From a virus: a stretch of 64,000 nucleotides of DNA. The notes under the pieces were generated by a model. It was given only the letters and a program-made list of their open reading frames with translations, did no database searches and was not told the origin of the DNA. The position numbers and the translations under genes are program-made. The number at the start of each line of letters is the position of its first letter. The stretch's first letter is position 1. Shown one piece after another: positions 3,819 through 54,907 of the stretch. Where the stretch lies: positions 3,969 through 67,968 of IMG/VR virus record IMGVR_UViG_3300048834_000246. One strand, 5' to 3'.

Positions 3819-4123
3819 AATTATACCCAGGAATGACGGTAAGCCTGTGGCTTAACGGTTTAGCACCGGTCTTCGGTGGAGATAGTCTTGACCTTAATGA
3901 GGTAGATGTGACGTTTGCAATTGCCGATAGTGAGGATACTATTGTTGTTGCGTCCGGAGTCGCTACCCAAATCGGAGAATCGTTTCGTCGGATTGTGACC
4001 CTTCCTAGTTCTCCCGGTAGGTACGTTGTATTGACTCGGGCTGTGTCCGGAACGTCGGTGTATCGGTCAGCAACAGATATTCGTATCTTACCTGCGGCGG
4101 ACGAAATCGTAGAAAACCCTTGA
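3815..4123 (+). CDS. small Ig-like virion protein (paralog of 14132-14458)
   Basis: ATGA overlap with the previous gene; shared TF..D...T....LTLP...G.Y pattern with 14132-14458. Confidence 0.65.
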   Translation: MKLYPGMTVSLWLNGLAPVFGGDSLDLNEVDVTFAIADSEDTIVVASGVATQIGESFRRIVTLPSSPGRYVVLTRAVSGTSVYRSATDIRILPAADEIVENP

Positions 4124-4148
4124 CAGCAATGGAATAGGTGTGTATACT
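4120..4148 (+). promoter_or_regulatory. sigma70-type promoter of the tRNA/ncRNA operon
   Basis: TTGACA-17 bp-TATACT directly upstream of the RNA array. Confidence 0.85.
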
Positions 4149-4225: not shown

Positions 4226-4300
4226 AGTCCTTTCGCCAAGCGGTAAGGCATCGGGTTTACATCCCGACATTCAGAGGTTCGAATCCTCTAAGGACTACCA
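4226..4300 (+). tRNA. tRNA-Val(TAC)
   Basis: AGTCCTT/AAGGACT acceptor stem, loop TTTACAT, TTCGAAT T-loop, encoded ACCA. Confidence 0.85.
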
Positions 4301-4463
4301 GCTTTCAGGGTGCTTGCACTCGCCGTAAGATATAGGCGCTAAAACTATCTTCTGGTAAAGTTCACCAGGCTGTTCAGTCTGTACGAGACGGCAAGAGCTT
4401 ACATAGCTTCGAGCCTAGATAGCTAGGCGGTACAGAGTTCGTTAGAATTACAAACTCGAAGCT
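4301..4463 (+). ncRNA. candidate pseudoknotted structured RNA
   Basis: CGCC/GGCG with AAGATA/TATCTT (H-type pseudoknot); GCTGT/ACGGC with TCTGTAC/GTACAGA; hairpins CTGGT/ACCAG and GCCTAG/CTAGGC. Confidence 0.5.
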
Positions 4464-4469
4464 TTTCTT

Positions 4470-4552
4470 GGGGGTGACAGGTTTGCCTAACAGAAGGGTA
4501 TAAAAACTTTGCGCTGTTAGAAACTCCGGTTCGAATCCGGACACTTCCACCA
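4470..4552 (+). ncRNA. minimal tmRNA-like tRNA-like domain (no mRNA-like domain)
   Basis: GGGGGTG/CACTTCC-ACCA acceptor with G3.U70; stemless D-loop ACAGGTTTGC; helix CTAACAG/CTGTTAG; T-arm TCCGG-TTCGAAT-CCGGA. Confidence 0.75.
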
Positions 4553-4605
4553 AGCTCTACAGAGACGAAATAGAGCAAAAATCTAAAAGTCTTAGGAGTA
4601 ACAAC

Positions 4606-4779
4606 ATGGCTAGACGGAGAAAAGTAACACAGAAACAGACACAGGAAACTGTAGAAGAAACTGTAGAAGAAATTGTAGAAGAAACTGTAGAAGAAACTGT
4701 AGAAGAAACATCGCAGGAGCCTCTTGTAATGACCGCGGCGGGTCTTCAACGGATGGGTGCCCAACGTAAAACAACCTAA
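4606..4779 (+). CDS. small protein (57 aa) with a basic N-terminus and ETVE repeats
   Basis: AGGAG RBS then ATG; MARRRKVTQKQTQETVEETVEEIVEETVEETVEETS...; absent from the ORF track. Confidence 0.7.
   Translation: MARRRKVTQKQTQETVEETVEEIVEETVEETVEETSQEPLVMTAAGLQRMGAQRKTT
4645..4709 (+). repeat. 12-bp tandem repeat GAAACTGTAGAA, about 5 copies
   Basis: Visible directly; in frame within 4606-4779. Confidence 0.9.
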
Positions 4780-4796
4780 GAATTTTTTATGAAAGG

Positions 4797-5000
4797 ATGT
4801 GCGGTATAACGAACGAAGAGCGAATTGCAAATTTAGAAACAGCGTTGTACCAAGCGCTATTTGCAATTGGGTACCTTTTAGGGTATAGTTTATCTAAGGC
4901 GGAAACCGACGAAGAAAAGCAAACACTTCAAGAACAAGTTCTCGGTCGGTTTCCCCCCGCAATGCACGATGAAATTATTGCATTGTTAGTATCGGAATAA
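4797..5000 (+). CDS. hypothetical protein (67 aa)
   Basis: Plausible helical protein; its stop overlaps the 5' end of tRNA-Pro. Confidence 0.55.
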   Translation: MCGITNEERIANLETALYQALFAIGYLLGYSLSKAETDEEKQTLQEQVLGRFPPAMHDEIIALLVSE

Positions 5001-5065
5001 GGCCGAACTGGTGAGGCGCGGCGTTTGGGACGCTGAAATAGTAGGTTCGAGTCCTGCTATTCCGA
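4993..5065 (+). tRNA. tRNA-Pro(TGG)
   Basis: CGGAATA/TATTCCG stem, loop TTTGGGA, TTCGAGT T-loop. Confidence 0.9.
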
Positions 5066-5069
5066 CCGT

Positions 5070-5157
5070 GGAAAAGTGGCAGAGCGGGTGGTTGCTTTTG
5101 TCTTGAAAACAAACGTAGATGACGAATCTACCGTGGGTTCGAATCCCACCTTTTCCT
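5070..5157 (+). tRNA. tRNA-Ser(TGA)
   Basis: GGAAAAG/CTTTTCC stem, loop CTTGAAA, long variable arm. Confidence 0.9.
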
Positions 5158-5162
5158 CTTAT

Positions 5163-5236
5163 TCGGGAGTCGTCCAACGGTAAGACGAGTGACTTTGGAT
5201 CATTCTATCGGGGTTCGAATCCCTGCTCCCGATCCA
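5163..5236 (+). tRNA. tRNA-Gln(TTG)
   Basis: TCGGGAG/CTCCCGA stem, loop CTTTGGA, encoded CCA. Confidence 0.9.
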
Positions 5237-5383
5237 AGCCAAGAAAGGGTGACTCCCTTCCTACGAATGCCTAGTCAGCGACCGTAGAGTAGTGTAAAAG
5301 GCACGGGCGTTTGAACTGACCCTGAGGTAAAAAGACTACGACTTGGAAGATGCCAGACTGTAGGGTATTTAATAAGGGTCTTT

Positions 5384-5461
5384 ATCAGAGTAGTTTCTGT
5401 TGGTAGAAATCCTCCGCTGTTAACGGAGAGTGCGAAGGTTCGATCCCTTCCTCTGGTGCCA
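5384..5461 (+). tRNA. tRNA-Asn(GTT)
   Basis: ATCAGAG/CTCTGGT stem, loop CTGTTAA, GCCA end. Confidence 0.85.
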
Positions 5462-5618
5462 TGTATAGTTTGCGTGATACCATCTATGCAGTTGCCGAGT
5501 TGCAGCGGGTAAGTAGACAACCTGCAACAGATAGCGATATTATCACTAGGCGCTATCGGTCAGGGGTGGTCCCTGGGTCCGGACACGAGGCCGATTTGGT
5601 ACAAGTGATCCGGATAAA

Positions 5619-5692
5619 AATGATGATATAGTGTAATGGGAGCATAACCGTCTTTATGTCGGTAGGAGAGGTTCGAATCCTCACCATCGTTT
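5619..5692 (+). tRNA. degenerate tRNA-like gene, apparent anticodon TTA
   Basis: D-loop TAATGGGA and T-arm GAGG-TTCGAAT-CCTC; ACCG/CGGT stem around loop TCTTTATGT; irregular acceptor stem. Confidence 0.5.
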
Positions 5693-5696
5693 TCTT

Positions 5697-5780
5697 GGGC
5701 TATTGGTGAAAGTGGCATACACGGTTGGCTTAAAACCAACTTCCTTTACGGGATTGAAGGTTCGAGTCCTTCATGGCCTA
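5697..5780 (+). tRNA. tRNA-Leu(TAA)
   Basis: GGGCTAT/ATGGCCT stem, loop CTTAAAA, variable arm. Confidence 0.9.
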
Positions 5781-5795
5781 CCGAGAAAAAGCTTA

Positions 5796-5876
5796 CGGGG
5801 TATGGTGGAATAAGCAGACACGCTATCCTTAGAAGATAGTGCCTAGAGCGTACAGGTGCAAATCCTGTTACCCTGA
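5796..5876 (+). tRNA. tRNA-Leu(TAG)
   Basis: CGGGGTA/TACCCTG stem, loop CTTAGAA, variable arm. Confidence 0.85.
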
Positions 5877-5895
5877 CTAGATTTGGAGGGATTTT

Positions 5896-6297
5896 GTGCC
5901 GTACGCAGATAGGGCTGTTCAATTAGAATATCAAAAAAAGTGGATGGAAAAACGCCGAAACGATTATTTTTTGGACAAACGATGTGCGGATTGTGGCTCA
6001 AAAGAAAATTTAGAATTAGATCATGTATATAGACAAACTAAAATTACTCATAGAATTTGGTCATGGTCCAAACAACGACAAGAAGAAGAACTTGCAAAAT
6101 GTGTTGCGCGGTGCCATACTTGTCATGTAAAAAAGACGTTGGATAAAGATTTGCCACGAGCTAAGCACGGAACACGAAGTAAATATAATGCAGGTTGCAG
6201 ATGTGCTGAGTGTAGAGAAGCTCTGAGAGTAGATGTTTCTAAATGGAGAGAACAGAAAAAGACTGAGCGAATGTGTAGCACGAATCTTGTTTCATAA
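5896..6297 (+). CDS. HNH endonuclease
   Basis: CADC...LELDHV...CHTCH, plus a C-terminal HG...CRCAEC motif; GGAGG RBS. Confidence 0.85.
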   Translation: MPYADRAVQLEYQKKWMEKRRNDYFLDKRCADCGSKENLELDHVYRQTKITHRIWSWSKQRQEEELAKCVARCHTCHVKKTLDKDLPRAKHGTRSKYNAGCRCAECREALRVDVSKWREQKKTERMCSTNLVS

Positions 6298-6335
6298 GCA
6301 AGAATTTAAGGGGGCGGCACCCTTATTCGCCACCA
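6266..6335 (+). tRNA. degenerate tRNA-Met(CAT)-like gene overlapping the HNH 3' end
   Basis: GCGAAT/ATTCGC stem plus ACCA, CTTGT-TTCATAA-GCAAG anticodon arm; D-arm reduced and T-loop non-canonical. Confidence 0.5.
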
Positions 6336-6427
6336 AACTAGAGGATAATCACGACCTGCTCCGAGGATGTATGCATTAAATCCTTGTGACGTACCTCTAG
6401 CGGAGACTCTGAATCTCCGGGGTCTTT

Positions 6428-6499
6428 ATGAGTGTAGTTCAACGGAAGAACAGCGGCCTCCAAACCCGCTTGTTGAGGGTTCGAATCCTTCCACTCATG
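6428..6499 (+). tRNA. tRNA-Trp(CCA)
   Basis: ATGAGTG/CACTCAT stem, loop CTCCAAA. Confidence 0.9.
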
Positions 6500-6600
6500 C
6501 CGAAAAGCTAAACTCTTCGGGAGGTCCGTGGTTTAGGGAAGTCAGGTCGCCCCTGATGGAAGTATGAGCCTATTGCAGCGCCTCATGCGAACGGACATTT

Positions 6601-6674
6601 GGTTTTATAGCGCAATTGGATAGCGCCCCGGCTTGTCACGCCGGTGGGTACGGGTTCGAATCCCGTTAGAACCG
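6601..6674 (+). tRNA. tRNA-Asp(GTC)
   Basis: GGTTTTA/TAGAACC stem, loop TTGTCAC. Confidence 0.9.
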
Positions 6675-6680
6675 CAGAAG

Positions 6681-6776
6681 ACCCAACAGTGGAACCGTTG
6701 GTTGGGTGAGGAAGAGTACGTGGGGTGAGATTCCCACACCGAAAGGTGCAGATTGCTACTGGCGTGCGAACGGTTC
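6681..6776 (+). ncRNA. candidate permuted-tRNA-like (YrlA/Y-RNA-like) RNA
   Basis: Four-way junction of GTACG/CGTGC, a T-like arm TGGG-GTGAGAT-TCCCA, CACC-GAAA-GGTG and CAG/CTG; outer helix GAACCGTT/AACGGTTC. Confidence 0.4.
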
Positions 6777-6780
6777 ATTT

Positions 6781-6853
6781 GTTCAAGTAGCTCAGCGGAT
6801 AGAGTCACCGTCTTCTAAGCGGTCGGTCATAGGTTCGAATCCTATCTTGAACA
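6781..6853 (+). tRNA. tRNA-Arg(TCT)
   Basis: GTTCAAG/CTTGAAC stem, loop CTTCTAA. Confidence 0.9.
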
Positions 6854-6884
6854 CCGTGCGGGATTAGCTAATGAAGGGAGAAAC

Positions 6885-7259
6885 GTGTACTCTAACGAAC
6901 AAATGAATGAGTATATGAAAAATCGGTGGACGAAACGACGAGAAACCGCTATACTAAGTTTAGGTGGAGTATGTGTTTCTTGTGGAAGTACTGAAAATTT
7001 AGAATTTGACCATATTGATCCTAATACAAAAGAGTTTACTCTAGCGGCGGGATCAGGATTTTCCGAAGAACGATTCTCTAAAGAATTAGCTAAGTGTCAA
7101 CTTCTTTGTGTATCGTGCCATAAACTAAAACACAGGGCACCCCATGGAACGTTAGCTAGAAAACGAGATTGTAACTGTTCTTTGTGTAAAGAAGCTTGGA
7201 ATACGTGGAACCGAGAATATAAACGACGTAGACGACAAGCAAAAAATATCCCGTTGTAG
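6885..7259 (+). CDS. HNH endonuclease (paralog of 5896-6297)
   Basis: CVSC...LEFDHIDP...ELAKCQLLCVSCH, plus HG...CNCSLC. Confidence 0.85.
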   Translation: MYSNEQMNEYMKNRWTKRRETAILSLGGVCVSCGSTENLEFDHIDPNTKEFTLAAGSGFSEERFSKELAKCQLLCVSCHKLKHRAPHGTLARKRDCNCSLCKEAWNTWNREYKRRRRQAKNIPL

Positions 7260-7322
7260 TAGAGTGGCCGCTACACTAGACTTTTAATCTTTGAGACAGA
7301 GGTTCGAATCCTCTCAGCGGGA
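7250..7322 (+). tRNA. tRNA-Lys(TTT)
   Basis: CCCGTTG/CAGCGGG stem, loop CTTTTAA (weak anticodon stem), canonical T-arm. Confidence 0.75.
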
Positions 7323-7333
7323 CTAAATAACTT

Positions 7334-7407
7334 GGGGAAATCGCCTAACGGAATGGCACCTTCTTTGCAAGAAGGAATAATTGTGGATTCGAATTCCACT
7401 TTCTCCA
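7334..7407 (+). tRNA. tRNA-Ala(TGC)
   Basis: GGGGAAA/TTTCTCC stem with G3.U70, loop TTTGCAA. Confidence 0.85.
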
Positions 7408-7548
7408 CCGGGCGCAACCTGCCGAAAGTGGTTGGCTTAGGGTAGTTGGCTGCAATTACCTACGCTCTATATCATAACGAGGCGTCAAATTACCCACGCC
7501 TACCGGGATTCCGGGCATATAGAGGGGGAATAGATACAAGGAGAGATT

Positions 7549-7794
7549 GTGCAACCTGAACCTACCATAACAATTGTTAGTGGAAGTGATTGGACTCAGT
7601 TATATGTTAATGATGACTGTGTTGAAGAAAATCATAGCATTAGTTTAACTCACGGTTTAGATGCGTTGGATATTCCCTACCAAACTATTTCTGTCGATGA
7701 CGATAGTGTTATGGAAGAAATTTCCGGGTATAATTATTCTCTTCGTAAAGTAAAAGATATTATTGAAAACTCAGGACAACTACCGTTGTTCTAA
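7549..7794 (+). CDS. hypothetical acidic protein (81 aa)
   Basis: AAGGAGAG RBS then GTG. Confidence 0.7.
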   Translation: MQPEPTITIVSGSDWTQLYVNDDCVEENHSISLTHGLDALDIPYQTISVDDDSVMEEISGYNYSLRKVKDIIENSGQLPLF

Positions 7795-7799
7795 AATAT

Positions 7800-7872
7800 G
7801 GTGTTCATGGCCGAGCGGATTAGGCACACGTCTGTGGAACGTGGTAGGTGGGTTCAATTCCCACTGAGTACC
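7800..7872 (+). tRNA. tRNA-His(GTG)
   Basis: G-1 plus GTGTTCA/TGAGTAC-C, loop CTGTGGA. Confidence 0.9.
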
Positions 7873-7887
7873 CCCAAAAGTATCTAT

Positions 7888-7959
7888 GTCCGTATGGTGA
7901 AAAGCATATCACCAATGTCTTCGAAACATTAGTTGTGGGTTGGATTCCTACTACGGACA
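7888..7959 (+). tRNA. tRNA-Arg(TCG)
   Basis: GTCCGTA/TACGGAC stem, loop CTTCGAA; T-loop TTGGATT is non-canonical. Confidence 0.8.
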
Positions 7960-7964
7960 CTAAT

Positions 7965-8039
7965 GCGCTAGTCGTATAACGGCTATTACCGCAGTTTTCC
8001 AAACTGCCGATCAGAGTTCGATTCTCTGCTGGCGCTCCA
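7965..8039 (+). tRNA. tRNA-Gly(TCC)
   Basis: GCGCTAG/CTGGCGC stem, loop TTTCCAA, TCCA end. Confidence 0.9.
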
Positions 8040-8040
8040 C

Positions 8041-8118
8041 GCATCCTTAGCTCAGACTGGTCAGAGCGGCTATCTTGTAAATAGCGGGTCAAGTGTTCGA
8101 ATCACTTAGGATGCTCCA
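8041..8118 (+). tRNA. tRNA-Thr(TGT)
   Basis: GCATCCT/AGGATGC stem, loop CTTGTAA, TCCA end. Confidence 0.9.
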
Positions 8119-8120
8119 AT

Positions 8121-8152
8121 AAAAAAAGAAGCCCTCGGGCTTCTTTTTTTTA
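8121..8152. terminator. bidirectional intrinsic terminator
   Basis: A7-GAAGCC-CTCG-GGCTTC-T8 between convergent units. Confidence 0.9.
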
Positions 8153-8154
8153 TT

Positions 8155-8601
8155 TTAAAGAATGATAAGAAGGAAAACTCCTCCCACAAACCACAGCCAT
8201 AAATTTCTCGGTTTTTCTTGTGCTTGCATTGTTGATGTGTACACCTCCCCTCGACGTTTAGCTTTAACTCGTCGTTGGTTGTTGTGATTGTATTTCGGCT
8301 TACGGCTGTTGCGTGACATTCGCTCACGACGGTAATTTGCGATCTTAGCACGCCGGGTACGACCGGAAATAATTCTATTGCTCTTAGCCATATTACACGA
8401 TCTACATGCTGTCGCTAAGTTTCGAGGATGGTCAGAGCCACCCTTAGACCTGGGATGAATATGGTCTAATTGAAGATACATAGTTGAGTCACAGTAAACA
8501 CAACGAAAATCGTCTCGCTCATAAATGGCGAGACGATCTTCACGACTGATCCAACCTGTGCGGCCACCACGATGCTTACTACGATGCTTCCTTAAAATCA
8601 T
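8155..8601 (-). CDS. HNH endonuclease with a C-terminal hydrophobic helix
   Basis: RDDFRCVYC...LDHIHPRSKGG...NLATACRSCN; ends LWLWFVGGVFLLIIL. Confidence 0.8.
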   Translation of the reverse strand: MILRKHRSKHRGGRTGWISREDRLAIYERDDFRCVYCDSTMYLQLDHIHPRSKGGSDHPRNLATACRSCNMAKSNRIISGRTRRAKIANYRRERMSRNSRKPKYNHNNQRRVKAKRRGEVYTSTMQAQEKPRNLWLWFVGGVFLLIIL

Positions 8602-9258: not shown

Positions 9259-9720
9259 TTAAAAATTCCCACGTCTTGATCCTTCCCATACTCGATACAT
9301 ATACGCTAATGTTGGTAGTTCTTTAGAAGATACGGCTTGAAGAAGTTGCTCAGTGTTGTCCAGACGCCCTACAAAAGGCATATTCTCAAAGAGTTGTTCT
9401 TGTGGTCCGATGACAATACAGCCTTTCTTTAGCGTGTACGCTCGTCCAAACTCCCAAAATTTCCCCCCTCCAACATGATAACGAGGATCATTGCTCGTAA
9501 ACATAATAAACAAATCGCAATTCGCTACGTCTTTTGAATCACGTACTGCGTCGGCTTGCTTGACCTCAAATGTTCGTGTACTTTCTCGGTCATGTGGCCC
9601 GTCTGGATCGTCTAACCAGGAACTAACAGAAATAAGGGTAGGATCATACGAAATTACTTTGTCTCGAATACCTCTAATTTCGTTTTTTCTATACCATGAA
9701 CCGGCAAAATAGATTTTCAC
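9259..9720 (-). CDS. nucleoside 2-deoxyribosyltransferase/N-glycosidase-like protein
   Basis: MKIYFAG, D..DV..CD, G...EFG.A motifs. Confidence 0.7.
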   Translation of the reverse strand: MKIYFAGSWYRKNEIRGIRDKVISYDPTLISVSSWLDDPDGPHDRESTRTFEVKQADAVRDSKDVANCDLFIMFTSNDPRYHVGGGKFWEFGRAYTLKKGCIVIGPQEQLFENMPFVGRLDNTEQLLQAVSSKELPTLAYMYRVWEGSRRGNF

Positions 9721-9914
9721 TAAAAGTTGTCTCCTTCTTCATTCTCTTCCAAAATCTCTGCTAAAGTATCGCGTACTTCCTCTACTCTGTCAATAGTCTC
9801 TATAGATACCCTACTATTCCTATCGAAATCTTTTAAAACATCACAGAGACAAGCATGTGTAATAAGCAGAAATTCCATATCTATGTTTTTTCTAAAAACG
9901 TTATACCGCCTCAT
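9720..9914 (-). CDS. hypothetical protein (64 aa)
   Basis: Packed within the - strand operon. Confidence 0.55.
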   Translation of the reverse strand: MRRYNVFRKNIDMEFLLITHACLCDVLKDFDRNSRVSIETIDRVEEVRDTLAEILEENEEGDNF

Positions 9915-10161
9915 GGTCTAGCTCCTTATCTTTTGCCTTCTTTGTACGAGACATATCTTTATGGTCATTTAATACGAGAGAATAATTAGGTTCAATTGAC
10001 GGCCCTAGATGTTCATCAAAATAGCGAAGAACATCATCGGATGTGAAGGTTACAAGGACATACCTGGGTGGAGCGCCTTGATAGGCAACATGTTCCAACC
10101 AGTCGTCCGGTAACGACCGTAAGAACGGATAGAACTGTGCGGAACGATACCTGTGTGTCAT
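9901..10161 (-). CDS. hypothetical protein (86 aa)
   Basis: Start overlaps the primase stop. Confidence 0.65.
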   Translation of the reverse strand: MTHRYRSAQFYPFLRSLPDDWLEHVAYQGAPPRYVLVTFTSDDVLRYFDEHLGPSIEPNYSLVLNDHKDMSRTKKAKDKELDHEAV

Positions 10162-12653
10162 TATTCACCTCGCTCTAAGGAATCAGGATTTAACATCGTA
10201 AAGCTGTACAAATTTGTGGGATTTCCTTGCCTCATTTCAATCTTCACAATGGATTCTACATCTTTTGCAAGTTCACGAAGCTGCTGTGCAAGCGCTCTCG
10301 CGTTCGAAACTTGATTCTCATATTCTCGTTCAGAACCGACCGCCTTAGCGGTATTCTTTAGTTCTGCATGGAGTCGAGACGCCGAAATCCAAGAACTGTT
10401 GTTTGGGTAAAAAACACTTCCATCCTCCGGCTTTGTTCCCTTTCGCCGCACCCACAAATCAATCATATTCCACAGCGTAGACGAATCTCTCGCAGTCTGT
10501 TTTTGATTGCTTTCAAGTGTTGAGAGAAGGTCAAGCTCCGGCAAGTCTACTGCTTTAGACGCCGCTAACATAAAGTCAGCATACGCGGCCATACGCAGAT
10601 TATGGGTTCCAGGCTTCCATGTTTTTAACACATTGACAATTTTATTGAGGTCGATAAGAAGTTCACCCCAAAGCTCGTTTCGGTTGTCTCGAATTGCATC
10701 AAGAAGAACCGTAGGGCTGATCTTTTCGTCCCGGCGATCTACGTACAGCACCACGATGCGCGTAGACACATCTGACCGGGTGAACCAGTGGTTCCGTGTG
10801 GTCATTCCGAGGTGACACTTCACCTTAAAGGAAACGTGTTCGTTGGTTGTGTACAGCTTCCGTCGGGTGAACTGAATCCCTGTAGCGACCTCACAGAGCG
10901 CGTCTTCAAGCCACTTGTTCGGGGTATCCACATTATCAAGGAACACATGGTGTGCGTTCGATACGGCGGTTTCAAAGGTACTTCGGTCGGTAGGGATAGA
11001 CGATACTGTTGTTTCCGGACCCGTTAGAAGCTCGCCTACTGCCTGTAGTGCGAGAGATTTACCGGAATCGGTTGGTCCCGCAATAATCAGGTGAGGCTGT
11101 GCATCCATGTATTCCGAGAAGAACAGGGAATATACCCATAGACGGAATAAGGCTTCGGCCTGATCCCGAGTGTGCCGTCCTAGCTGTGTGTCGTAATTAG
11201 GAAGCCCGAAGATTGCTTTTTGAAGCGTGGTGTTTCGCCGCTTTCTTGGTGGTTCTGCGACAAAAGGTGTCATGTTTACGGTATCTCGAAAGAGAATACC
11301 GTCCGTTCCGTTTTGCACCGTGTCGATTGCATCACCACCGTCTAGGCGGTAAACCATACCTTCTCCGTTATAAATATAGAGAAGGTGGTTCTCTTTACTC
11401 CAATAGTAAGATGTTTTTGGAACAACCGGAATTCCTCGATCCTGAACAAACGCGGTGAGCGTTTCATTAATCGCTTTAAATTCAGCTTCTCCATCAACAA
11501 CCCAATAACGAATATTGAGCAGCGTTTTCCAACGCTGATTTGTGGCATTCATTGGAATGATATGATAGCCGTCATAATACAGAGCTTCGTGGCGTTCGGT
11601 ATCCCAATACAAACATCCTGTATCATTCAAGTCTTTCATAATATGTTCACTAATTGACCGGCGTTTTTCAGTTGCCGGTGTGTTTGATTGTGCCCGAATC
11701 TGCTTTAGAACCGAAAGCACAGGTGTCTCAGACGGAGTGTTTGAAATCCTAAATCCACGGTAAATATCCTTCCACAAATCTTCATCGCTGTTGTAACGCC
11801 ACTCTTGATGAAATTTGTCGTTTGCTGAGTTGTACACCAGGGAGAAGCATTCTTCCTGTGTCATTCCTAAATGATAGCAAAGAGAGTAGATTCGCCAAAG
11901 AGCCGCTGATCTGTCCGGTCGAGGTCGGTCAAGAAGATCGGTAAGTTCCGTAGAGAAACTATACGACGCTTCAAGCTCTTCCCTTGACGGAAGATCGTCA
12001 ATATGAGGCGTTTCGGGAATTTTCCCCGTATCGAACAACATTTCCGGGGCAGCTTCCAAATTATCAAAATCTGGAAGCGTGTAGACGTTTTGGCTGTTGT
12101 ACTCAATAACGGAAATGTTATGTGGGGTTTGACGTTTATGTGACGTAGACCCTGGAAGACGAAGCCACTTCGAAAGCGCCCATCCCCCTTTATCTTCTTT
12201 TAGTTTGTGTCCATAAGCAAGGCGGTAGTTGATGCGCTCAACATCCTTCGCTGCATATGGGCGGTCAAGAAGCCAGTATAGGTGATAACGCCCCGGAGAC
12301 GTATTAACAATAATGGACGGTTCCGGCTTGAATGTCTTCGGAGGAATATCCGAGTCATCAAGCTCTACCCAAGCTACATCAAGGAGTTCAACGCTATCGT
12401 CTTTCCCCACATCCTTCCCCCGACGTGTGAAGCCGTGCGGGGTAAAATACACATCCTTTCCAACTGTGTTAATACCAAGCCCGGAAATGCCGGATTCGGA
12501 CAGAGAATGAATATTAGAACGACCCAACCAGTGAATCGTTCCGGGGAAAGTTTGTGTTGAATCAACGATTGCAAAACGGATAAGGTCATTACGTCGAGGA
12601 TCATTAACACCGTTCATCGGGAACAGTGTTTGTAGAAACTCTGTTGTTTGCAT
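10161..12653 (-). CDS. primase-helicase (RepB-like primase fused to a P-loop NTPase)
   Basis: WVELD, SPGRYHLYW and LRLPGS primase motifs; GPTDSGKS Walker A and FLDNVD Walker B. Confidence 0.85.
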   Translation of the reverse strand: MQTTEFLQTLFPMNGVNDPRRNDLIRFAIVDSTQTFPGTIHWLGRSNIHSLSESGISGLGINTVGKDVYFTPHGFTRRGKDVGKDDSVELLDVAWVELDDSDIPPKTFKPEPSIIVNTSPGRYHLYWLLDRPYAAKDVERINYRLAYGHKLKEDKGGWALSKWLRLPGSTSHKRQTPHNISVIEYNSQNVYTLPDFDNLEAAPEMLFDTGKIPETPHIDDLPSREELEASYSFSTELTDLLDRPRPDRSAALWRIYSLCYHLGMTQEECFSLVYNSANDKFHQEWRYNSDEDLWKDIYRGFRISNTPSETPVLSVLKQIRAQSNTPATEKRRSISEHIMKDLNDTGCLYWDTERHEALYYDGYHIIPMNATNQRWKTLLNIRYWVVDGEAEFKAINETLTAFVQDRGIPVVPKTSYYWSKENHLLYIYNGEGMVYRLDGGDAIDTVQNGTDGILFRDTVNMTPFVAEPPRKRRNTTLQKAIFGLPNYDTQLGRHTRDQAEALFRLWVYSLFFSEYMDAQPHLIIAGPTDSGKSLALQAVGELLTGPETTVSSIPTDRSTFETAVSNAHHVFLDNVDTPNKWLEDALCEVATGIQFTRRKLYTTNEHVSFKVKCHLGMTTRNHWFTRSDVSTRIVVLYVDRRDEKISPTVLLDAIRDNRNELWGELLIDLNKIVNVLKTWKPGTHNLRMAAYADFMLAASKAVDLPELDLLSTLESNQKQTARDSSTLWNMIDLWVRRKGTKPEDGSVFYPNNSSWISASRLHAELKNTAKAVGSEREYENQVSNARALAQQLRELAKDVESIVKIEMRQGNPTNLYSFTMLNPDSLERGE

Positions 12654-49364: not shown

Positions 49365-49555
49365 GAAAAGTTCATTCCTGCGTTGAATCCGTACCCAACC
49401 GCGAAGCTAAAGATAACAACGAAAACGAGAATAAACGAGAGATACAGTGCAAAAGTAAGAAAGATACTTAGAAAGAAAATAACTCTTTCCAAAAGTCGAA
49501 AGACCCCTAAAACAATTGCCCATAGCGCCCCTGCGATAGCTAATAGAAAATTCAT
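49358..49555 (-). CDS. small membrane protein
   Basis: Two hydrophobic helices. Confidence 0.65.
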   Translation of the reverse strand: MNFLLAIAGALWAIVLGVFRLLERVIFFLSIFLTFALYLSFILVFVVIFSFAVGYGFNAGMNFSW

Positions 49556-49950
49556 TAGTTTGTTTCGCTTTCCGGCGCTGCTGCAAGAAGTTCTTGACCT
49601 AACGCCAACAGTTTACTTACATTATCAACAATTCCGATTCGGTAATCCTCGGGAAGATTTGAAATTACATCGTCTAGGTCCGCAAGCATAGGCTCAAATA
49701 ACAAGGATCGAACATCGTCTGGTGTATATCCTGCTGCAATAAGAAGCATGTTTCGTTCTCGATCTTCTAAATTTAGTGCGCTAGAAAGACTATACACCAC
49801 AGCCCGACTAGGACTCCCACGTTTGTTTAGCTCTAAAAGCGACACATACGAATCATGCAATCCCGCATCTTCCGCTACGCGCTTTTGCGAGAGTTGTTTA
49901 TCTGTTCGAAACGCGTGAAGAATATTTCCAAAGTTAAGATTCAAATTCAC
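49555..49950 (-). CDS. XRE-family HTH regulator
   Basis: FG..L...R....LSQ..VA..AGL..SYVS.LE...R..PS; AGGAG RBS before GTG 49950. Confidence 0.85.
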   Translation of the reverse strand: MNLNLNFGNILHAFRTDKQLSQKRVAEDAGLHDSYVSLLELNKRGSPSRAVVYSLSSALNLEDRERNMLLIAAGYTPDDVRSLLFEPMLADLDDVISNLPEDYRIGIVDNVSKLLALGQELLAAAPESETN

Positions 49951-50176
49951 TTCTCCTAAGCAGTTTTCTCTGCTTCCTATCTCGCCCGGTGTGGTACTTT
50001 TTACAATAAGAACATCGGTATACATTGTACTTCTGATTGTAAGTTGCTTGAAGCCTTTTCGCTTCTCGTCGCGCTACTTGCTTACTATCGTAATCAACTT
50101 TTGAATAGCATTGTTTATACGCTTTTTGGAATGACCAAGCAGAGAAATAAAGTGTGCTATCCTTAAGCAACGCCAT
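49934..50176 (-). CDS. small basic Zn-binding protein
   Basis: C..K..Y...VYRCSYC..YH. Confidence 0.65.
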   Translation of the reverse strand: MALLKDSTLYFSAWSFQKAYKQCYSKVDYDSKQVARREAKRLQATYNQKYNVYRCSYCKKYHTGRDRKQRKLLRRSEFES

Positions 50177-50471: not shown

Positions 50472-50900
50472 TTACGGATCGTATACACATGTACCGTCTG
50501 ACCGATACTGATTAACGTCGAACTCTAGGAGATACATTAGCCCTAGTGCATCGAACAATTCTCGGTCAGACTCATTTAGAAAATCTTGAAGAGCAATTAT
50601 TTGCACGCTATACCCATGATCCCGTAACCCAATCAACGTGTCTGCAATAAACCGGTATCGGCGGCGGTCTGACAACCCTGGGCCATACTTGTCGAATGCC
50701 TTCGGAATAGAGAGGCAGGAAATACGGTTCTCCGTACACTGTTCACGAATCCTTTCCGATAAACCATCTTCCGGATGAAAAATGACCAACGTATCTGTAT
50801 AGACGCGTTTGATAAGGTTCGTTTCAATAATATCCTCCCACTCTGTCGTCTGTCGTTCATTTGCTGAAACCACGTAGAAGACTTTACGCACGCTACACAC
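50472..50900 (-). CDS. hypothetical protein (142 aa)
   Basis: AGGAGG RBS at the integrase end. Confidence 0.65.
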   Translation of the reverse strand: MCSVRKVFYVVSANERQTTEWEDIIETNLIKRVYTDTLVIFHPEDGLSERIREQCTENRISCLSIPKAFDKYGPGLSDRRRYRFIADTLIGLRDHGYSVQIIALQDFLNESDRELFDALGLMYLLEFDVNQYRSDGTCVYDP

Positions 50901-51795
50901 CTCCTAGTGCCGTGTCCATGAAGTTCGCGGCGTCCACTTTCAGCGAGTCCACCACGCCACCGTAGCGCGAAGTCATGCGAATTGACGTGTGCCCGAACAA
51001 ATCCATCAGCGTCCGCTCTCCAACACCTTGTGCCCGAAGAATCGTACCGAACGCGTGTCGTAGTTGGTGGAGTCCCATTCCAGGAAGTCCCGCGCTGTCA
51101 AGAACATCTTGAAACGCATTATACACCCGGTGTGGATCAATTGGAAGACCCTTAGCCCCCGGAAAAATGTACCCTTCCGTCTTTTCTTGCCCCCACATAC
51201 CGGTGAGTAGGTCATACGTCGTCTTCGTCGTCGGTAGTAGCCGGATACTCGCAGCCGTCTTTGGCTCTTGTACAACGAGTCCCACACCATCGACTCGAAC
51301 CACTTGTCGTACCACACGTAGCGTTTTCTGCTCAAAATCAACATCCTCCCAACGAAGCGCACAGGCTTCTCCACGCCGGAGTCCTTGTGCCAACATGATG
51401 CGGATAACCGCTTCAAACTTGTTTCCTTTGAGCGATGCTAGGATTGCCTGTACATCGCTCATTGGAATTGCATCTACCGACTTACTAGGAACATGTACCT
51501 TTGCGGTCGCCTTCGTTACATTACGATCAATATATCCCCACGCAACCGCATCCTCAAACGCCTTACGGAGAATGGTCTGCATGAGTCGAATCGTGCTTGC
51601 CGCGATCCCCTTGTTTTGCATATACACGACAACCTGTGCCACATCCACCGGTGTAACGGAACTCATTTGCTTATCTCCAATCACCGGGGTAATATAATTA
51701 CGAATGTGGCACAGGTAATTTTGTGCGGTTCGAGTACGAACCGAAGTCTTATGAACCTCGATCCATTCAGCCATAAACTCGTGTACCTGCTTCAC
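50893..51795 (-). CDS. int: tyrosine integrase/recombinase
   Basis: GLRRGEA..L.W.DVDF, PKT, HQLRH, GH, catalytic Y; RBS before GTG 51795. Confidence 0.9.
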   Translation of the reverse strand: MKQVHEFMAEWIEVHKTSVRTRTAQNYLCHIRNYITPVIGDKQMSSVTPVDVAQVVVYMQNKGIAASTIRLMQTILRKAFEDAVAWGYIDRNVTKATAKVHVPSKSVDAIPMSDVQAILASLKGNKFEAVIRIMLAQGLRRGEACALRWEDVDFEQKTLRVVRQVVRVDGVGLVVQEPKTAASIRLLPTTKTTYDLLTGMWGQEKTEGYIFPGAKGLPIDPHRVYNAFQDVLDSAGLPGMGLHQLRHAFGTILRAQGVGERTLMDLFGHTSIRMTSRYGGVVDSLKVDAANFMDTALGGV

Positions 51796-51821
51796 TTGAA
51801 CCTCTCCTTTACTATGTGTCA

Positions 51822-51850
51822 AGTATACACGCTTAGCTGAACGGCGTCAA
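51822..51850 (-). promoter_or_regulatory. sigma70 promoter for the integrase
   Basis: TTGACG-17-TATACT. Confidence 0.75.
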
Positions 51851-51852
51851 GG

Positions 51853-53055
51853 TTATTCGGCGGCTTTCGTGTCGCCTTTAATCGTGATGATCGGTCGTAG
51901 CGTGTGCAGAATCGTCACGAGGTCTGCTTGATTCTCCATCACACGGTCAATGTCCTTGTACGCGCCAGGAGCCTCGTCTAGCGTTTCCCTAGACGCCCGT
52001 GAATAGGTGCCCTCCAATGACAACATAAATTCATCCATACCAATTGATCGCTTTGCAACGTTCCGTCCCATCGTTCTTCCCGCACCATGTGAGCTAGAAT
52101 TGTACGCATCAGCAACCCGTTTACTAGTTACCACATAGCTTTTCGTACCCATTGAGCCGGGAATAAACCCAACTGGAACCGGCGTCATCGCGCCTTTTCG
52201 GTGAACCCAAGAGAGTCCATTCGCCGTTTCTTCTTGAACAGCATAGTTGTGGGGTACATCGCGGATAAGATCGGTGTACTCAGCTCTTTCTAATCCTTTA
52301 TACTGAAGCGTGATCGTAAGTGCTTTCACCATATTTTGCATCATGCGGTACCTGTTCTCACTCGCATATGAAATTGCCCATTGCATATCCCGAGCATACG
52401 CTGACCCATATCCGACCTTTGACGTATCAAGATACGCTAAGTCTTTCGGATAGGACACACCTTTTCCGTCGCTGTAATCTTTCGCGGCCTCAGCATAGAA
52501 CGATGCAATCGTGTGACCGATGTTCCGTGATCCTGAGTGAACCGCCAACCAAATTGTATCCGTTTCAACATCCCGAAGTGCTTCGATGAAGTGGTTTCCC
52601 CCACCGAGCGTTCCGAGTTGGTGCCAGGCGCGGTCGTCTGCTCGTTTTTGAAGGTCCGGAGCGTTCAACCCCCAAACCTTAAACATATCCGGAATTGGCT
52701 GATCGTTCGCGTGGTGTGAAAATCCTACCGGAATAAGTTCCCGAACATGAGACTCCCACAGTTTCCAGAAATCTTCATTCAGCCAACCCGTGAGACGATA
52801 AGGCGTTTTTACATACGAAATTCCGCATCCAATATCAACGCCCACCGCGTTCGGAATGATAATGTTTTGTTTCGTTGGTAGAATCGTTCCAATAGGGACA
52901 CCTACGCCCAGGTGTGTATCCGGCATCACGGCAACGTGTCCGTTCAGATGCGGGTGGGTAGCGACATACTTAATCTGGTCAATCGTACCCGACTCGATTT
53001 CAGTCCAGTCAATCCACGTTTTAATTTTTCCGTCGCTGCTCGTATACATCGTCAC
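51853..53055 (-). CDS. rtcB: RtcB RNA ligase
   Basis: MPDTHLG, GVDIGCG, GTLGGGNHF, HSGSR, HN, HRKGA, PGSMG, SHGAGR, DEAPGAYK. Confidence 0.95.
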   Translation of the reverse strand: MTMYTSSDGKIKTWIDWTEIESGTIDQIKYVATHPHLNGHVAVMPDTHLGVGVPIGTILPTKQNIIIPNAVGVDIGCGISYVKTPYRLTGWLNEDFWKLWESHVRELIPVGFSHHANDQPIPDMFKVWGLNAPDLQKRADDRAWHQLGTLGGGNHFIEALRDVETDTIWLAVHSGSRNIGHTIASFYAEAAKDYSDGKGVSYPKDLAYLDTSKVGYGSAYARDMQWAISYASENRYRMMQNMVKALTITLQYKGLERAEYTDLIRDVPHNYAVQEETANGLSWVHRKGAMTPVPVGFIPGSMGTKSYVVTSKRVADAYNSSSHGAGRTMGRNVAKRSIGMDEFMLSLEGTYSRASRETLDEAPGAYKDIDRVMENQADLVTILHTLRPIITIKGDTKAAE

Positions 53056-53360: not shown

Positions 53361-53603
53361 TTACTTGTGTCCGTACCCAGGACGCCCAAAGTACATGACT
53401 TTTCTTGAAATAATCTCGCTTCGAACCACCTCAATATCTTTGTCTAAATTGTACTCCAAGTCGGGGTGGATAGCAAGGATTGTTGGCTCCACCCCATACT
53501 TCTCTTGAAACCGGTACACCCCATATGCAAACGCCTCTTCTAAAGGTTTCTTAATCCGAGGCTGCATTTCAATTGCGAGGTACGTGAGGTCTGGAAGCGA
53601 CAT
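53361..53603 (-). CDS. hypothetical protein
   Basis: ATG overlaps the peptidase stop. Confidence 0.65.
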   Translation of the reverse strand: MSLPDLTYLAIEMQPRIKKPLEEAFAYGVYRFQEKYGVEPTILAIHPDLEYNLDKDIEVVRSEIISRKVMYFGRPGYGHK

Positions 53604-54880
53604 TAGGCAACGACCTTCCCGGTAATAATCGCCTTCGGGGGCCAATCATCCCCGAAGGTATCGTTCCGTCCAAATGTATCCTCGGTCGGAATGTAGTCCT
53701 GGCACACCATACAGAAGAAGTTCTCTTCGGTGGAGTCCCAATTCATGCAATCGTAGCCCTTGCACATCGGGCAAATGCCCACCGATCTATTCCATGCAAG
53801 TGATCGGTCTGTTTCATCATCATCAAACCCGTTCATATAACTGTCACCTTCTGATTCGGGCAGATACTTCTCAATAACCTCGGCTTTCATTTTAGCCGCC
53901 CGTTCCAGAAGTGTATCACGATCTGCGGCAACCACGTCGGCTACCGTCGCGGTTACTTTTGGTTTGGGGAAGGATGCCGGTTTAGATAGTGCCCGTTCCC
54001 ACGCTGCATCTTCTTTCCAGTACGAATCGTAAGAACCTTGTCGTGCGTCAAACATTCCCGTTTTCGGGTTCCACGTTTTGTACGAATAAGACCGCCGCGT
54101 GCTGCGAACCTTATCGACTTTGTGCTTCCACTTACGGAAACTCAGATTCTTACAAATCATGCGGAACAGATTCAGCGTATTTGCTACGTCGCTGATGCTC
54201 ACCATTTCGCTGTTCGTGTGCGGGTTGTAATACCCGGCTGAAACATTGGCACAGCTTACCGCAAGTCCCTTCGATTTCAACTCATACACATCCGTTAGGC
54301 TTCCGGCGTCGTACGGGGTAAACCCAAATTCACGAAGGAACGGTGCGATAGCTTCACCGAACGCGTCACTGTACAATTCGGTTCCACACGCGGTTCGAAC
54401 AAAGTCAGACGAACCTTTTCGATCTGCTTGCAAAACGAAAGACGAGTCCTTGAAGAAGCTCATATCGGCAGCGCCAGAGCCAACGCACCCAATTTCTTCA
54501 TCTACGAAGAAGGCAACCTTCACACTTTTCAACTCCGTAAGCAGTTGGAGAGCGATGAAAATTCCTACTTTGTCGTCTCCGCCAATACCTCTCGGTTGAA
54601 TGTTGACAGGATCAATTGCCAAGAGAATGTCATCTGCCTGAACAACCTTGAAGAAGCTATCCGGAACAATCCTGTGTACCGTATCCATGTGAGCTACGAT
54701 AGTCGGGAATACGTCGGCGGACCCTTTCTTGACATATAGGTTTCCGTCTCGGTCAACTTCCGCAACGAGTCCCATACTAAATACATAGTCCACGATGAAC
54801 TCACTAATCTTATCCATCTTCCCCGTATCGGACTGAATGGAAAGAATCTGCTTTAGCAATTTTGTGTTGATTGTGCTCAT
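53603..54880 (-). CDS. M28/M20-like Zn peptidase with a C-terminal Zn ribbon
   Basis: AHMDTVH, GGDDKVG, EEIGC.G, DRKG, TD, GYY.PH; CPMC...CMVC. Confidence 0.85.
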   Translation of the reverse strand: MSTINTKLLKQILSIQSDTGKMDKISEFIVDYVFSMGLVAEVDRDGNLYVKKGSADVFPTIVAHMDTVHRIVPDSFFKVVQADDILLAIDPVNIQPRGIGGDDKVGIFIALQLLTELKSVKVAFFVDEEIGCVGSGAADMSFFKDSSFVLQADRKGSSDFVRTACGTELYSDAFGEAIAPFLREFGFTPYDAGSLTDVYELKSKGLAVSCANVSAGYYNPHTNSEMVSISDVANTLNLFRMICKNLSFRKWKHKVDKVRSTRRSYSYKTWNPKTGMFDARQGSYDSYWKEDAAWERALSKPASFPKPKVTATVADVVAADRDTLLERAAKMKAEVIEKYLPESEGDSYMNGFDDDETDRSLAWNRSVGICPMCKGYDCMNWDSTEENFFCMVCQDYIPTEDTFGRNDTFGDDWPPKAIITGKVVA

Positions 54881-54907
54881 TCGCACCTCTCTTTCTCTGT
54901 TACTAAC

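Follow-up and report, generated by a model that had tools for sequence, protein, structure and literature searches.

A probable tmRNA gene reduced to the tRNA-like domain in a phage tRNA array, and its family in IMG/VR

The tRNA array and the gene at 4470-4552

The window, by which we mean the whole stretch of 64,000 nucleotides analysed here, covers bases 3969-67968 of a 67,968-bp virus record (IMGVR_UViG_3300048834_000246) that is rated 100% complete. Genes for a large terminase, a portal protein, a tape measure protein, a family-A DNA polymerase, a ribonucleotide reductase, RtcB, a tyrosine integrase and an HTH protein were found on the record, and the nearest matches of its TerL (Rhizobium phages at 48%, a Methanoculleus virus at 43%) are not informative for the host. 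The tyrosine integrase gene (50893-51822, minus strand) lies directly beside that of RtcB (51853-53055, minus strand), and near the two are the genes for the HTH protein (49555-50025) and an M42-like peptidase (53603-54886). As judged from its integrase and HTH protein, the phage may be temperate.

An array of 17 tRNA genes called by ARAGORN, 16 of which pass the Rfam tRNA gathering score, occupies positions 4226-8118 on the plus strand, and the 83-nt gene that is the subject of this report, hereafter the mini-tmRNA (4470-4552, plus strand), is embedded in it. A promoter-like site upstream of the array (TTGACA-17-TATACT, 4120-4148, plus strand) agrees with the consensus at 11 of 12 positions, and a terminator-like 13-bp hairpin followed by a T-run (8121-8150, plus strand) stands directly after the last tRNA. 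Both are consensus matches only, and together they bracket the tRNA array including the mini-tmRNA. An ordinary tRNA-Ala(UGC), separate from the mini-tmRNA, is located at 7334-7409 on the plus strand (ARAGORN; 53.8 bits on the Rfam tRNA model), just where a first-pass annotation of this DNA had placed it.

Two of the ARAGORN calls, at 7250-7323 and 5620-5691 (both plus strand), read 'tRNA-Stop(tta)'. The idea of an ochre suppressor was rejected, since among the 40 ORFs with a length of 150 amino acids or more 27 stop at TAA and 7250-7323 aligns with a tRNA-Lys(UUU) of a relative, with which it has the anticodon loop CTTTTAA in common. As TAA is the main stop codon of the phage, there is no sign of TAA recoding, and from the common loop 7250-7323 is probably a lysine tRNA read one base out of register. 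The call at 5620-5691 is a weak tRNA of 31.7 bits.

HNH endonuclease ORFs are situated inside and beside the array (6885-7259, plus strand; 8155-8601, minus strand). In the relative contig L049, described below, an ORF with an HNH-type CPNCH motif and a tRNA 3'-half fragment were read by eye in the DNA between tRNA-Val and the mini-tmRNA (about 9880-10270, minus strand), and homing endonucleases may be reshuffling the tRNA array. Just downstream of the mini-tmRNA, behind an AGGAG, is a 57-aa ORF with a repeated ETVEE motif (4606-4779, plus strand), whose repeat has gained or lost 12 nt in frame among near relatives from public runs; no match to the ORF was found in Pfam or PHROG.

A structured element of about 120 nt (4350-4469, plus strand) lies upstream of the mini-tmRNA, and its copy in L049 (9509-9625, minus strand) lies downstream of the mini there and abuts tRNA-Tyr. 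The two copies have GGCTGTTC..GAGACGGCAAG in common, and 9 of the 28 predicted pairs change on both sides between them. The element matched no Rfam family and was found only in the two contigs of the relative, and a contig of run X1 has 66 other letters in place of 4306-4522. It may be a stable RNA cut from the tRNA operon. Its reading as a separate mRNA-like piece of a tmRNA was rejected, because there is no credible match to the tmRNA model (the flank 4300-4469 scores 19 bits with low posteriors) and just two relative contigs hold it.

The mini-tmRNA itself opens with the 5' strand of an acceptor stem, GGGGGTG (4470-4476), and ends with the 3' strand CACTTCC, a discriminator A and an encoded CCA (4542-4552, of which ACCA is 4549-4552). 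Its 5' strand forms seven pairs with 4542-4548, including G3.U70 and G4.U69. Next comes the D-loop analogue ACAGGTTTGC (4477-4486), which contains the GG, is unpaired and has no D-stem, and which the alignment to the Rfam tmRNA model RF00023 matches to the consensus GAucuGGaUU.CGAC. A P2-like helix of seven perfect pairs, CTAACAG/CTGTTAG (4487-4493 with 4514-4520), is closed by exactly 20 nt (4494-4513), inside which the fold places a weak 5-bp hairpin, AGGGU/ACUUU (4495-4499 with 4506-4510). The linker AAAC leads from this helix to the T arm TCCGG-TTCGAAT-CCGGA (4525-4541). There is no anticodon arm, anticodon or D-stem.

The 83-nt sequence is identical to the one quoted in the first-pass annotation, and the acceptor with G3.U70 and ACCA, the D-loop without a D-stem and the helix closed by about 20 nt that were described there can all be read directly in it, as can the remaining elements listed. 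The 7-bp acceptor with G3.U70, the stemless D-loop analogue, the T arm and the 3' ACCA are the elements of a tmRNA tRNA-like domain (TLD). By its folding energy alone the 83-nt sequence does not stand out significantly from shuffled versions of itself (z = -1.69), of which 11 in 200 fold equally well. On its sequence, the RNA consists of the acceptor stem, D-loop analogue, P2 helix and T arm of a tmRNA, with a 20-nt hairpin cap that replaces the pseudoknots and the tag frame.

RF00023 aligns its positions 1-374 to the 83 nt from end to end, with 306 internal positions skipped and posteriors near 1 at both ends. The match scores 29.2 bits (E 8.6e-11) in a 91-nt search and 37.7 bits (E 3.8e-15) in the 68-kb genome, both under the gathering score of 47. 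On the tRNA model RF00005 these bases score 17.4 bits, short of the cut-off of 29, ARAGORN makes no call at 4470-4552, and the mt-tmRNA model RF02544 finds no match in the phage genome even at E up to 10. With P2 closed by just 20 nt and 306 model positions skipped, an mRNA-like domain (resume codon, tag frame, pseudoknots) is absent. On R1, a covariance model of the family described below, the mini-tmRNA scores 57.3 bits, its sequence being part of the training set of that model, and the tRNAs of the window at most 17.7 bits.

These alignments show the gene to be homologous to tmRNA and not to tRNA. The first-pass annotation had claimed a tmRNA tRNA-like domain without the mRNA-like domain inside a phage tRNA operon, and had allowed that the sequence might score better as a decayed tRNA. 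The end-to-end match to RF00023 within the 17-tRNA array bears out the claim, and the scores on the two models (37.7 against 17.4 bits) run the wrong way for a decayed tRNA. We therefore regard the identification as a TLD-only tmRNA as very probably correct.

Relatives and a family in IMG/VR

In the viral collection no relatives were found for the 1095-aa ORF of the phage (531-3818), and three, 73% identical, for its 830-aa primase-like protein (10161-12653, minus strand). Two of the contigs concerned, L049 and L050, reach the homologous tRNA array and both carry an 89-nt mini-tmRNA; the third, L051, is too short to reach that place. In L049, a 67,645-bp contig with terminal repeats, the mini (9664-9752, minus strand; 49.3 bits on R1) is the next RNA gene after tRNA-Val, with an ORF lying between them. 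It has diverged in its acceptor (GGGGAUG/CAUCUCC) and T stem (GUGGG/CCCAC), in both of them by compensatory changes, and ends in CCACCG; read by eye, it keeps an inner hairpin AGGGU...ACCUU. A full-length ssrA at this place in relatives, which would have pointed to a recent deletion, had been named in the first-pass annotation as grounds against its claim, and it is another mini that L049 and L050 hold instead. As the same array in these relatives, whose primase is 73% identical, contains an 89-nt mini that has diverged, the sequences indicate that the mini-tmRNA is not a recent deletion from a full-length ssrA.

Still closer relatives are present in contigs of wastewater runs, where the changes in the mini are confined to the T loop (4533 G>A, 4535 A>T). 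Among the 24 public runs listed with near relatives, the best contains 0.22 of the words, and the four that were examined (X1, X2, X3 and X21) gave contigs, or probably DNA, or reads on tRNA-Val at 85-90% likeness, and showed no RNA ends. In BLAST searches against isolated phages the array region had no match, nor had the mini of a further contig (L029), and the 83 nt returned merely T-arm or attP-like pieces of at most 39% of the query.

The wider family was collected from IMG/VR with two DNA patterns. The first, in which nothing but GGGG.TGA, GG.TT, the T loop and CCA was prescribed, found 44 loci, of which 38 were kept. The six that were dropped (L007, L009, L013, L031, L033 and L038) have 3' strands that are not complementary to the 5' end; in ARAGORN, L009 comes out as a tRNA-Gln and L013 as a tRNA-Met, and L031 and L038 are the same as L009 and L033, respectively. 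The relaxed pattern found at least 120 stretches. Eighty loci from it were listed, and their R1 scores lie at 39.5-81.8 bits for 78 and at about 29 for the other two. Seven loci on viral contigs, found with the pattern made one N longer, are minis with one extra base. Over the two patterns the family amounts to at least 116 loci, a total in which at least four contigs are counted in both pattern sets, with 91 distinct sequences that fall into 78 clusters at 85% identity and are 66-99 nt long (median 82).

In a MAFFT alignment, 24 distinct sequences and the window fit one structure, for which RNAalifold gives 19 pairs, 11 of them with compensatory changes. The covariance model R1 was built from these sequences, with mycobacteriophage DS6A left out, and ordinary tRNAs score at most 33.8 bits on it. 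When 27 sequences, including DS6A and L049, were realigned to R1, 94.9% of cells were paired as against 69.3% after shuffling, a level that none of 500 shuffles reached. The covariation score was 0.689 as against 0.176 shuffled, and pairing fell to 48-58% when the partners were slid by 1-3 columns. An alignment fitted to R1 favours the structure, and the MAFFT alignment had already given the same picture. Within the 27 sequences all seven P2 pairs and four of the five T-stem pairs show double changes, the T stem is paired in 100% of cells, and the acceptor pair 5:68 covaries (GC 12, AU 9, CG 5, UG 1). All three helices thus covary across the family. Six other family members pass the RF00023 gathering score, at 51.9-73.4 bits and at the mini's own boundaries.

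The pair G3:U70 is kept in 90 of the 91 distinct sequences, though position 70 was left free for C or T in both patterns and for any base in the first, and the pairs 5:68 and 6:67 vary freely. This suggests that charging is under selection. The constancy of the discriminator A, of G1-G4, C71 and C72 and of the T loop is not evidence, because these were fixed by the search patterns. G4:C69 is found in 87 of the 91, the window being one of three with G.U, and 50 of the sequences encode CCA. An inner motif [G/U]AA[A/G]..CC before the small hairpin was found by a loose pattern in 51, and in the 27-sequence alignment DS6A has it and the window and L049 are without it. With the junctions GCC and GAAAC where the consensus has GAC and GGAC, with G4.U69 and without the inner motif, the window copy is a divergent member, for which SmpB binding is accordingly not assured.

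The sole member of the 91 with G3:C70 is that of contig L019 (301-393, minus strand), which at 93 nt is among the longest, and which may be uncharged or charged differently. In three other contigs (L003, L005 and L020) ARAGORN calls a 'tmRNA' of 303-374 nt with an implausible tag peptide and a 3' end in common with the mini. These long calls were rejected as spurious, the Rfam match sitting on the 78-81-nt mini alone, and ARAGORN-based counts of phage tmRNAs may contain such artefacts.

Possible functions and origins

Trans-translation is the main bacterial ribosome-rescue pathway and a drug target. A search for SmpB (PF01668) in the phage's own genome and in 41 other carrier records found none, and from this gene content the mini must work with, or against, the SmpB of the host. 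Bona fide tRNA genes above the Rfam cut-off are present in 10 of the 41 carrier records and an integrase (E up to 0.001) in 7, and an RF-1/ArfB domain in none. Since most of the carrier records are fragments, only four being at least 90% complete, absences from them are weak evidence. RtcB is encoded by both this phage and DS6A, and a general link between it and the mini was considered and rejected, as PF01139 is found in just 1 of 40 other carriers, that one being the close relative. From its genomic company the mini appears to be a self-standing small gene of tRNA-rich and tRNA-free phages, temperate and apparently lytic ones alike.

It has been reported that AlaRS charges the TLD of tmRNA, that this domain binds EF-Tu with a strength close to that of a tRNA, and that SmpB occupies the place where a tRNA has its anticodon arm and promotes charging (PMC8012679). 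A DS6A-like molecule was reported to inhibit E. coli tmRNA, and the idea of SmpB titration was stated, in PMC4131195 and PMC11915505, both with reference to Mao et al. 2009; according to these citing papers, the inhibition did not need charging. We infer that the mini-tmRNA would be made in one transcript with the tRNAs, from which RNase P and 3' trimming would free it, and that with its G3.U70, A73 and encoded CCA it would be charged with alanine by the AlaRS of the host. It would then bind host SmpB and EF-Tu and compete with the host's own tmRNA for both SmpB and stalled ribosomes, and SsrA tagging and degradation would be suppressed during infection. An alanine-charged TLD-only tmRNA in competition with the tmRNA of the host is, taken as a whole, the best explanation of the gene, and one to which we give somewhat better than even credence. 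The inhibitory mechanism by itself, that is an action of the mini against host trans-translation, is drawn by analogy and could fall either way.

A pure SmpB sponge is disfavoured, because G3:U70 is nearly universal while the cited inhibition did not need charging. The constancy of that pair, in 90 of 91 sequences and at a position left free, with 5:68 and 6:67 varying, makes charging seem selected, and it fits a ribosome-based rescue equally well. Under either the inhibition or the rescue reading the mini would probably act at the ribosome.

In a tag-free rescue, the alanine-charged mini with host SmpB and EF-Tu would enter stalled ribosomes and take over the nascent chain, which would be released by drop-off with Pth, by ArfB or after repeated alanine additions, so that phage proteins from broken mRNAs escape the degradation tag. 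Such rescue is how the mitochondrial tmRNAs without a coding sequence are thought to help. The discriminator A and the kept G3:U70 are in line with this proposal, as are the 10 of 41 carriers with bona fide tRNA genes, which point to a gene set for the support of translation, and the persistence of CDS-less tmRNAs in jakobid and oomycete mitochondria with imported SmpB and in two plastids (PMC11915505). However, no release step is known without a resume and a stop codon, none of the 41 carrier records yielded an RF-1/ArfB-type domain, and the outcome of the one experiment reported for a molecule of this sort was inhibition of tmRNA and not rescue (PMC4131195). Tag-free rescue is therefore rather doubtful, even if it deserves to be kept in view.

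Trans-translation might also not be the target at all, if the mini were a decoy for another host factor that recognises the TLD, such as RNase R or a defence system with an SmpB-like sensor. CoCoNuT systems of type II and III-A carry SmpB-like OB folds for which tmRNA binding is predicted (PMC11090510), and the family is spread across many phage lineages, with and without an integrase (7 of 41) or tRNA genes. This proposal is pure inference, for which no genomic association was found, and it leaves the selection for the alanine identity pair unexplained; we consider it unlikely.

An origin as an attP site, or as a remnant of host ssrA acquired by a phage with its integration site in the tmRNA gene, could be suggested by the tyrosine integrase of the phage (50893-51822, minus strand), by the many phages that use ssrA as their integration site and contain its 3' end (PMC10865867) and by four other carrier contigs in which the distance from the mini to an integrase is 2-6 kb. 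Yet the 5' half and the P2 helix, neither of which an attP core needs, are present and covary, and in the window the integrase is about 46 kb from the mini. The 25-nt 3' end of the mini has no exact match in 185,579 species genomes, and 34 of the 41 carrier records, many of them fragments, are without an integrase. DS6A, for its part, integrates at tRNA-Lys-CTT and not at a tmRNA gene (PMC10865867 table), so that its mini is not its attP. An attP site or ssrA remnant is thus quite improbable. A decayed tRNA pseudogene or a chance resemblance, with which the silence of ARAGORN, a score under the Rfam tmRNA gathering threshold and a fold z-score of a mere -1.69 would agree, is very unlikely and close to negligible, given the missing anticodon arm, the 17.4 bits as a tRNA against 37.7 as a tmRNA, and above all the compensatory changes and conservation in the relatives and the 91 distinct sequences.

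Charged competition with host tmRNA thus being preferred, a broader and more tentative reading, which we rate at somewhat less than even, can be put forward. TLD-only tmRNAs would be a large and hitherto overlooked family of RNAs encoded by phages (over 100 loci in IMG/VR and 91 sequences, in genomes with and without tRNA arrays and integrases), strongly selected for chargeability, which act on the ribosome as charged molecules and not as passive SmpB sponges, and which jam or re-route host trans-translation; standard annotation would miss the divergent ones. The annotation gap is visible in the divergent minis missed by ARAGORN and by the Rfam gathering cut-offs and in the spurious long 'tmRNA' calls of three contigs, and R1 now separates TLD-only tmRNAs from tRNAs. 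Whether phages shut down SsrA tagging or use a tag-free rescue has been made a testable question, and the conserved G3:U70 offers a mutational handle, by which a charging-dead RNA can be set against the wild type.

Comparison with known RNAs

With tRNA-Ala the mini-tmRNA of the window has in common the acceptor identity set of G3.U70 and A73, the T arm and the CCA end. It differs in being without a D-stem, an anticodon arm and an anticodon and in its 17.4 bits on RF00005, and the phage has a normal tRNA-Ala at 7334-7409. The likeness to the standard one-piece tmRNA (RF00023) lies in the tRNA-like domain formed by both ends, with G3.U70, A73 and CCA. The window RNA lacks what stands between them in the standard form, pseudoknot 1, the resume codon, the tag frame and pseudoknots 2-4 (306 positions), and its score stays under the threshold.

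Reduced in the same way are the CDS-less tmRNAs of organelles, namely the mt-tmRNA of jakobids and oomycetes (RF02544) and the forms of about 65 bp in Mallomonadaceae plastids (PMC11915505), which likewise have a TLD without a tag frame and an SmpB encoded elsewhere. Whereas these serve the translation of their own genome, the RNA of the window is encoded by a virus without SmpB. As RF02544 finds no match at E up to 10, the reduction in the window is independent of that in mt-tmRNA.

The closest counterpart is that of mycobacteriophage DS6A, which is listed as 'TLD only' by Hudson, Lau and Williams in 2014 (PMC4131195; tmRNA Website tmID 11587). The tmRNA database paper of 2025 (PMC11915505) repeats DS6A and sets it beside the CDS-less mitochondrial and the two plastid forms; the available text of that paper names no phage case besides DS6A, and its supplement is without the terms Phage, DS6A, TLD or virus. 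The statement in the first-pass annotation that no phage example had been described is thus contradicted by both papers. Our literature search found no survey of TLD-only tmRNA genes in phages, nor the term 'mini-tmRNA'. A single phage RNA that mimics just the tRNA-like end of tmRNA had thus been described before. The window adds a second and very different phage lineage, and the searches show dozens of lineages with such genes.

In the DS6A record we found an unannotated 83-nt match to RF00023 (28478-28560, 43.2 bits), and R1, which was built without DS6A, scores it at 58.0 bits. The two RNAs differ in that the DS6A mini stands alone between protein genes, in a genome without a tRNA gene, whereas that of the window lies inside a 17-tRNA array. 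DS6A ends in CCACTA, its CCA not being fully encoded, and carries an inner motif of GAAAACC and a hairpin, whereas the window encodes ACCA and is without the motif; the sequences are far apart, at 69% G+C in DS6A and 49% in the window. Both are phage-encoded RNAs of 83 nt with a G3.U70 acceptor, a D-loop analogue, a short-hairpin P2 and a T arm, without a tag frame or pseudoknots, and both match RF00023 from end to end below its gathering score; neither genome has SmpB, and each has an RtcB-type ligase. The features that mark the DS6A type, a length of 65-100 nt, a complete TLD, a short-hairpin P2 and a place in a phage genome, are all found in the window's RNA. On these sequence features, the mini-tmRNA of the window is to be classed with the 'TLD only' ssrA of DS6A, and the gene is a real, if divergent, member of a kind that was known from a single phage and that is widespread in uncultivated phages.
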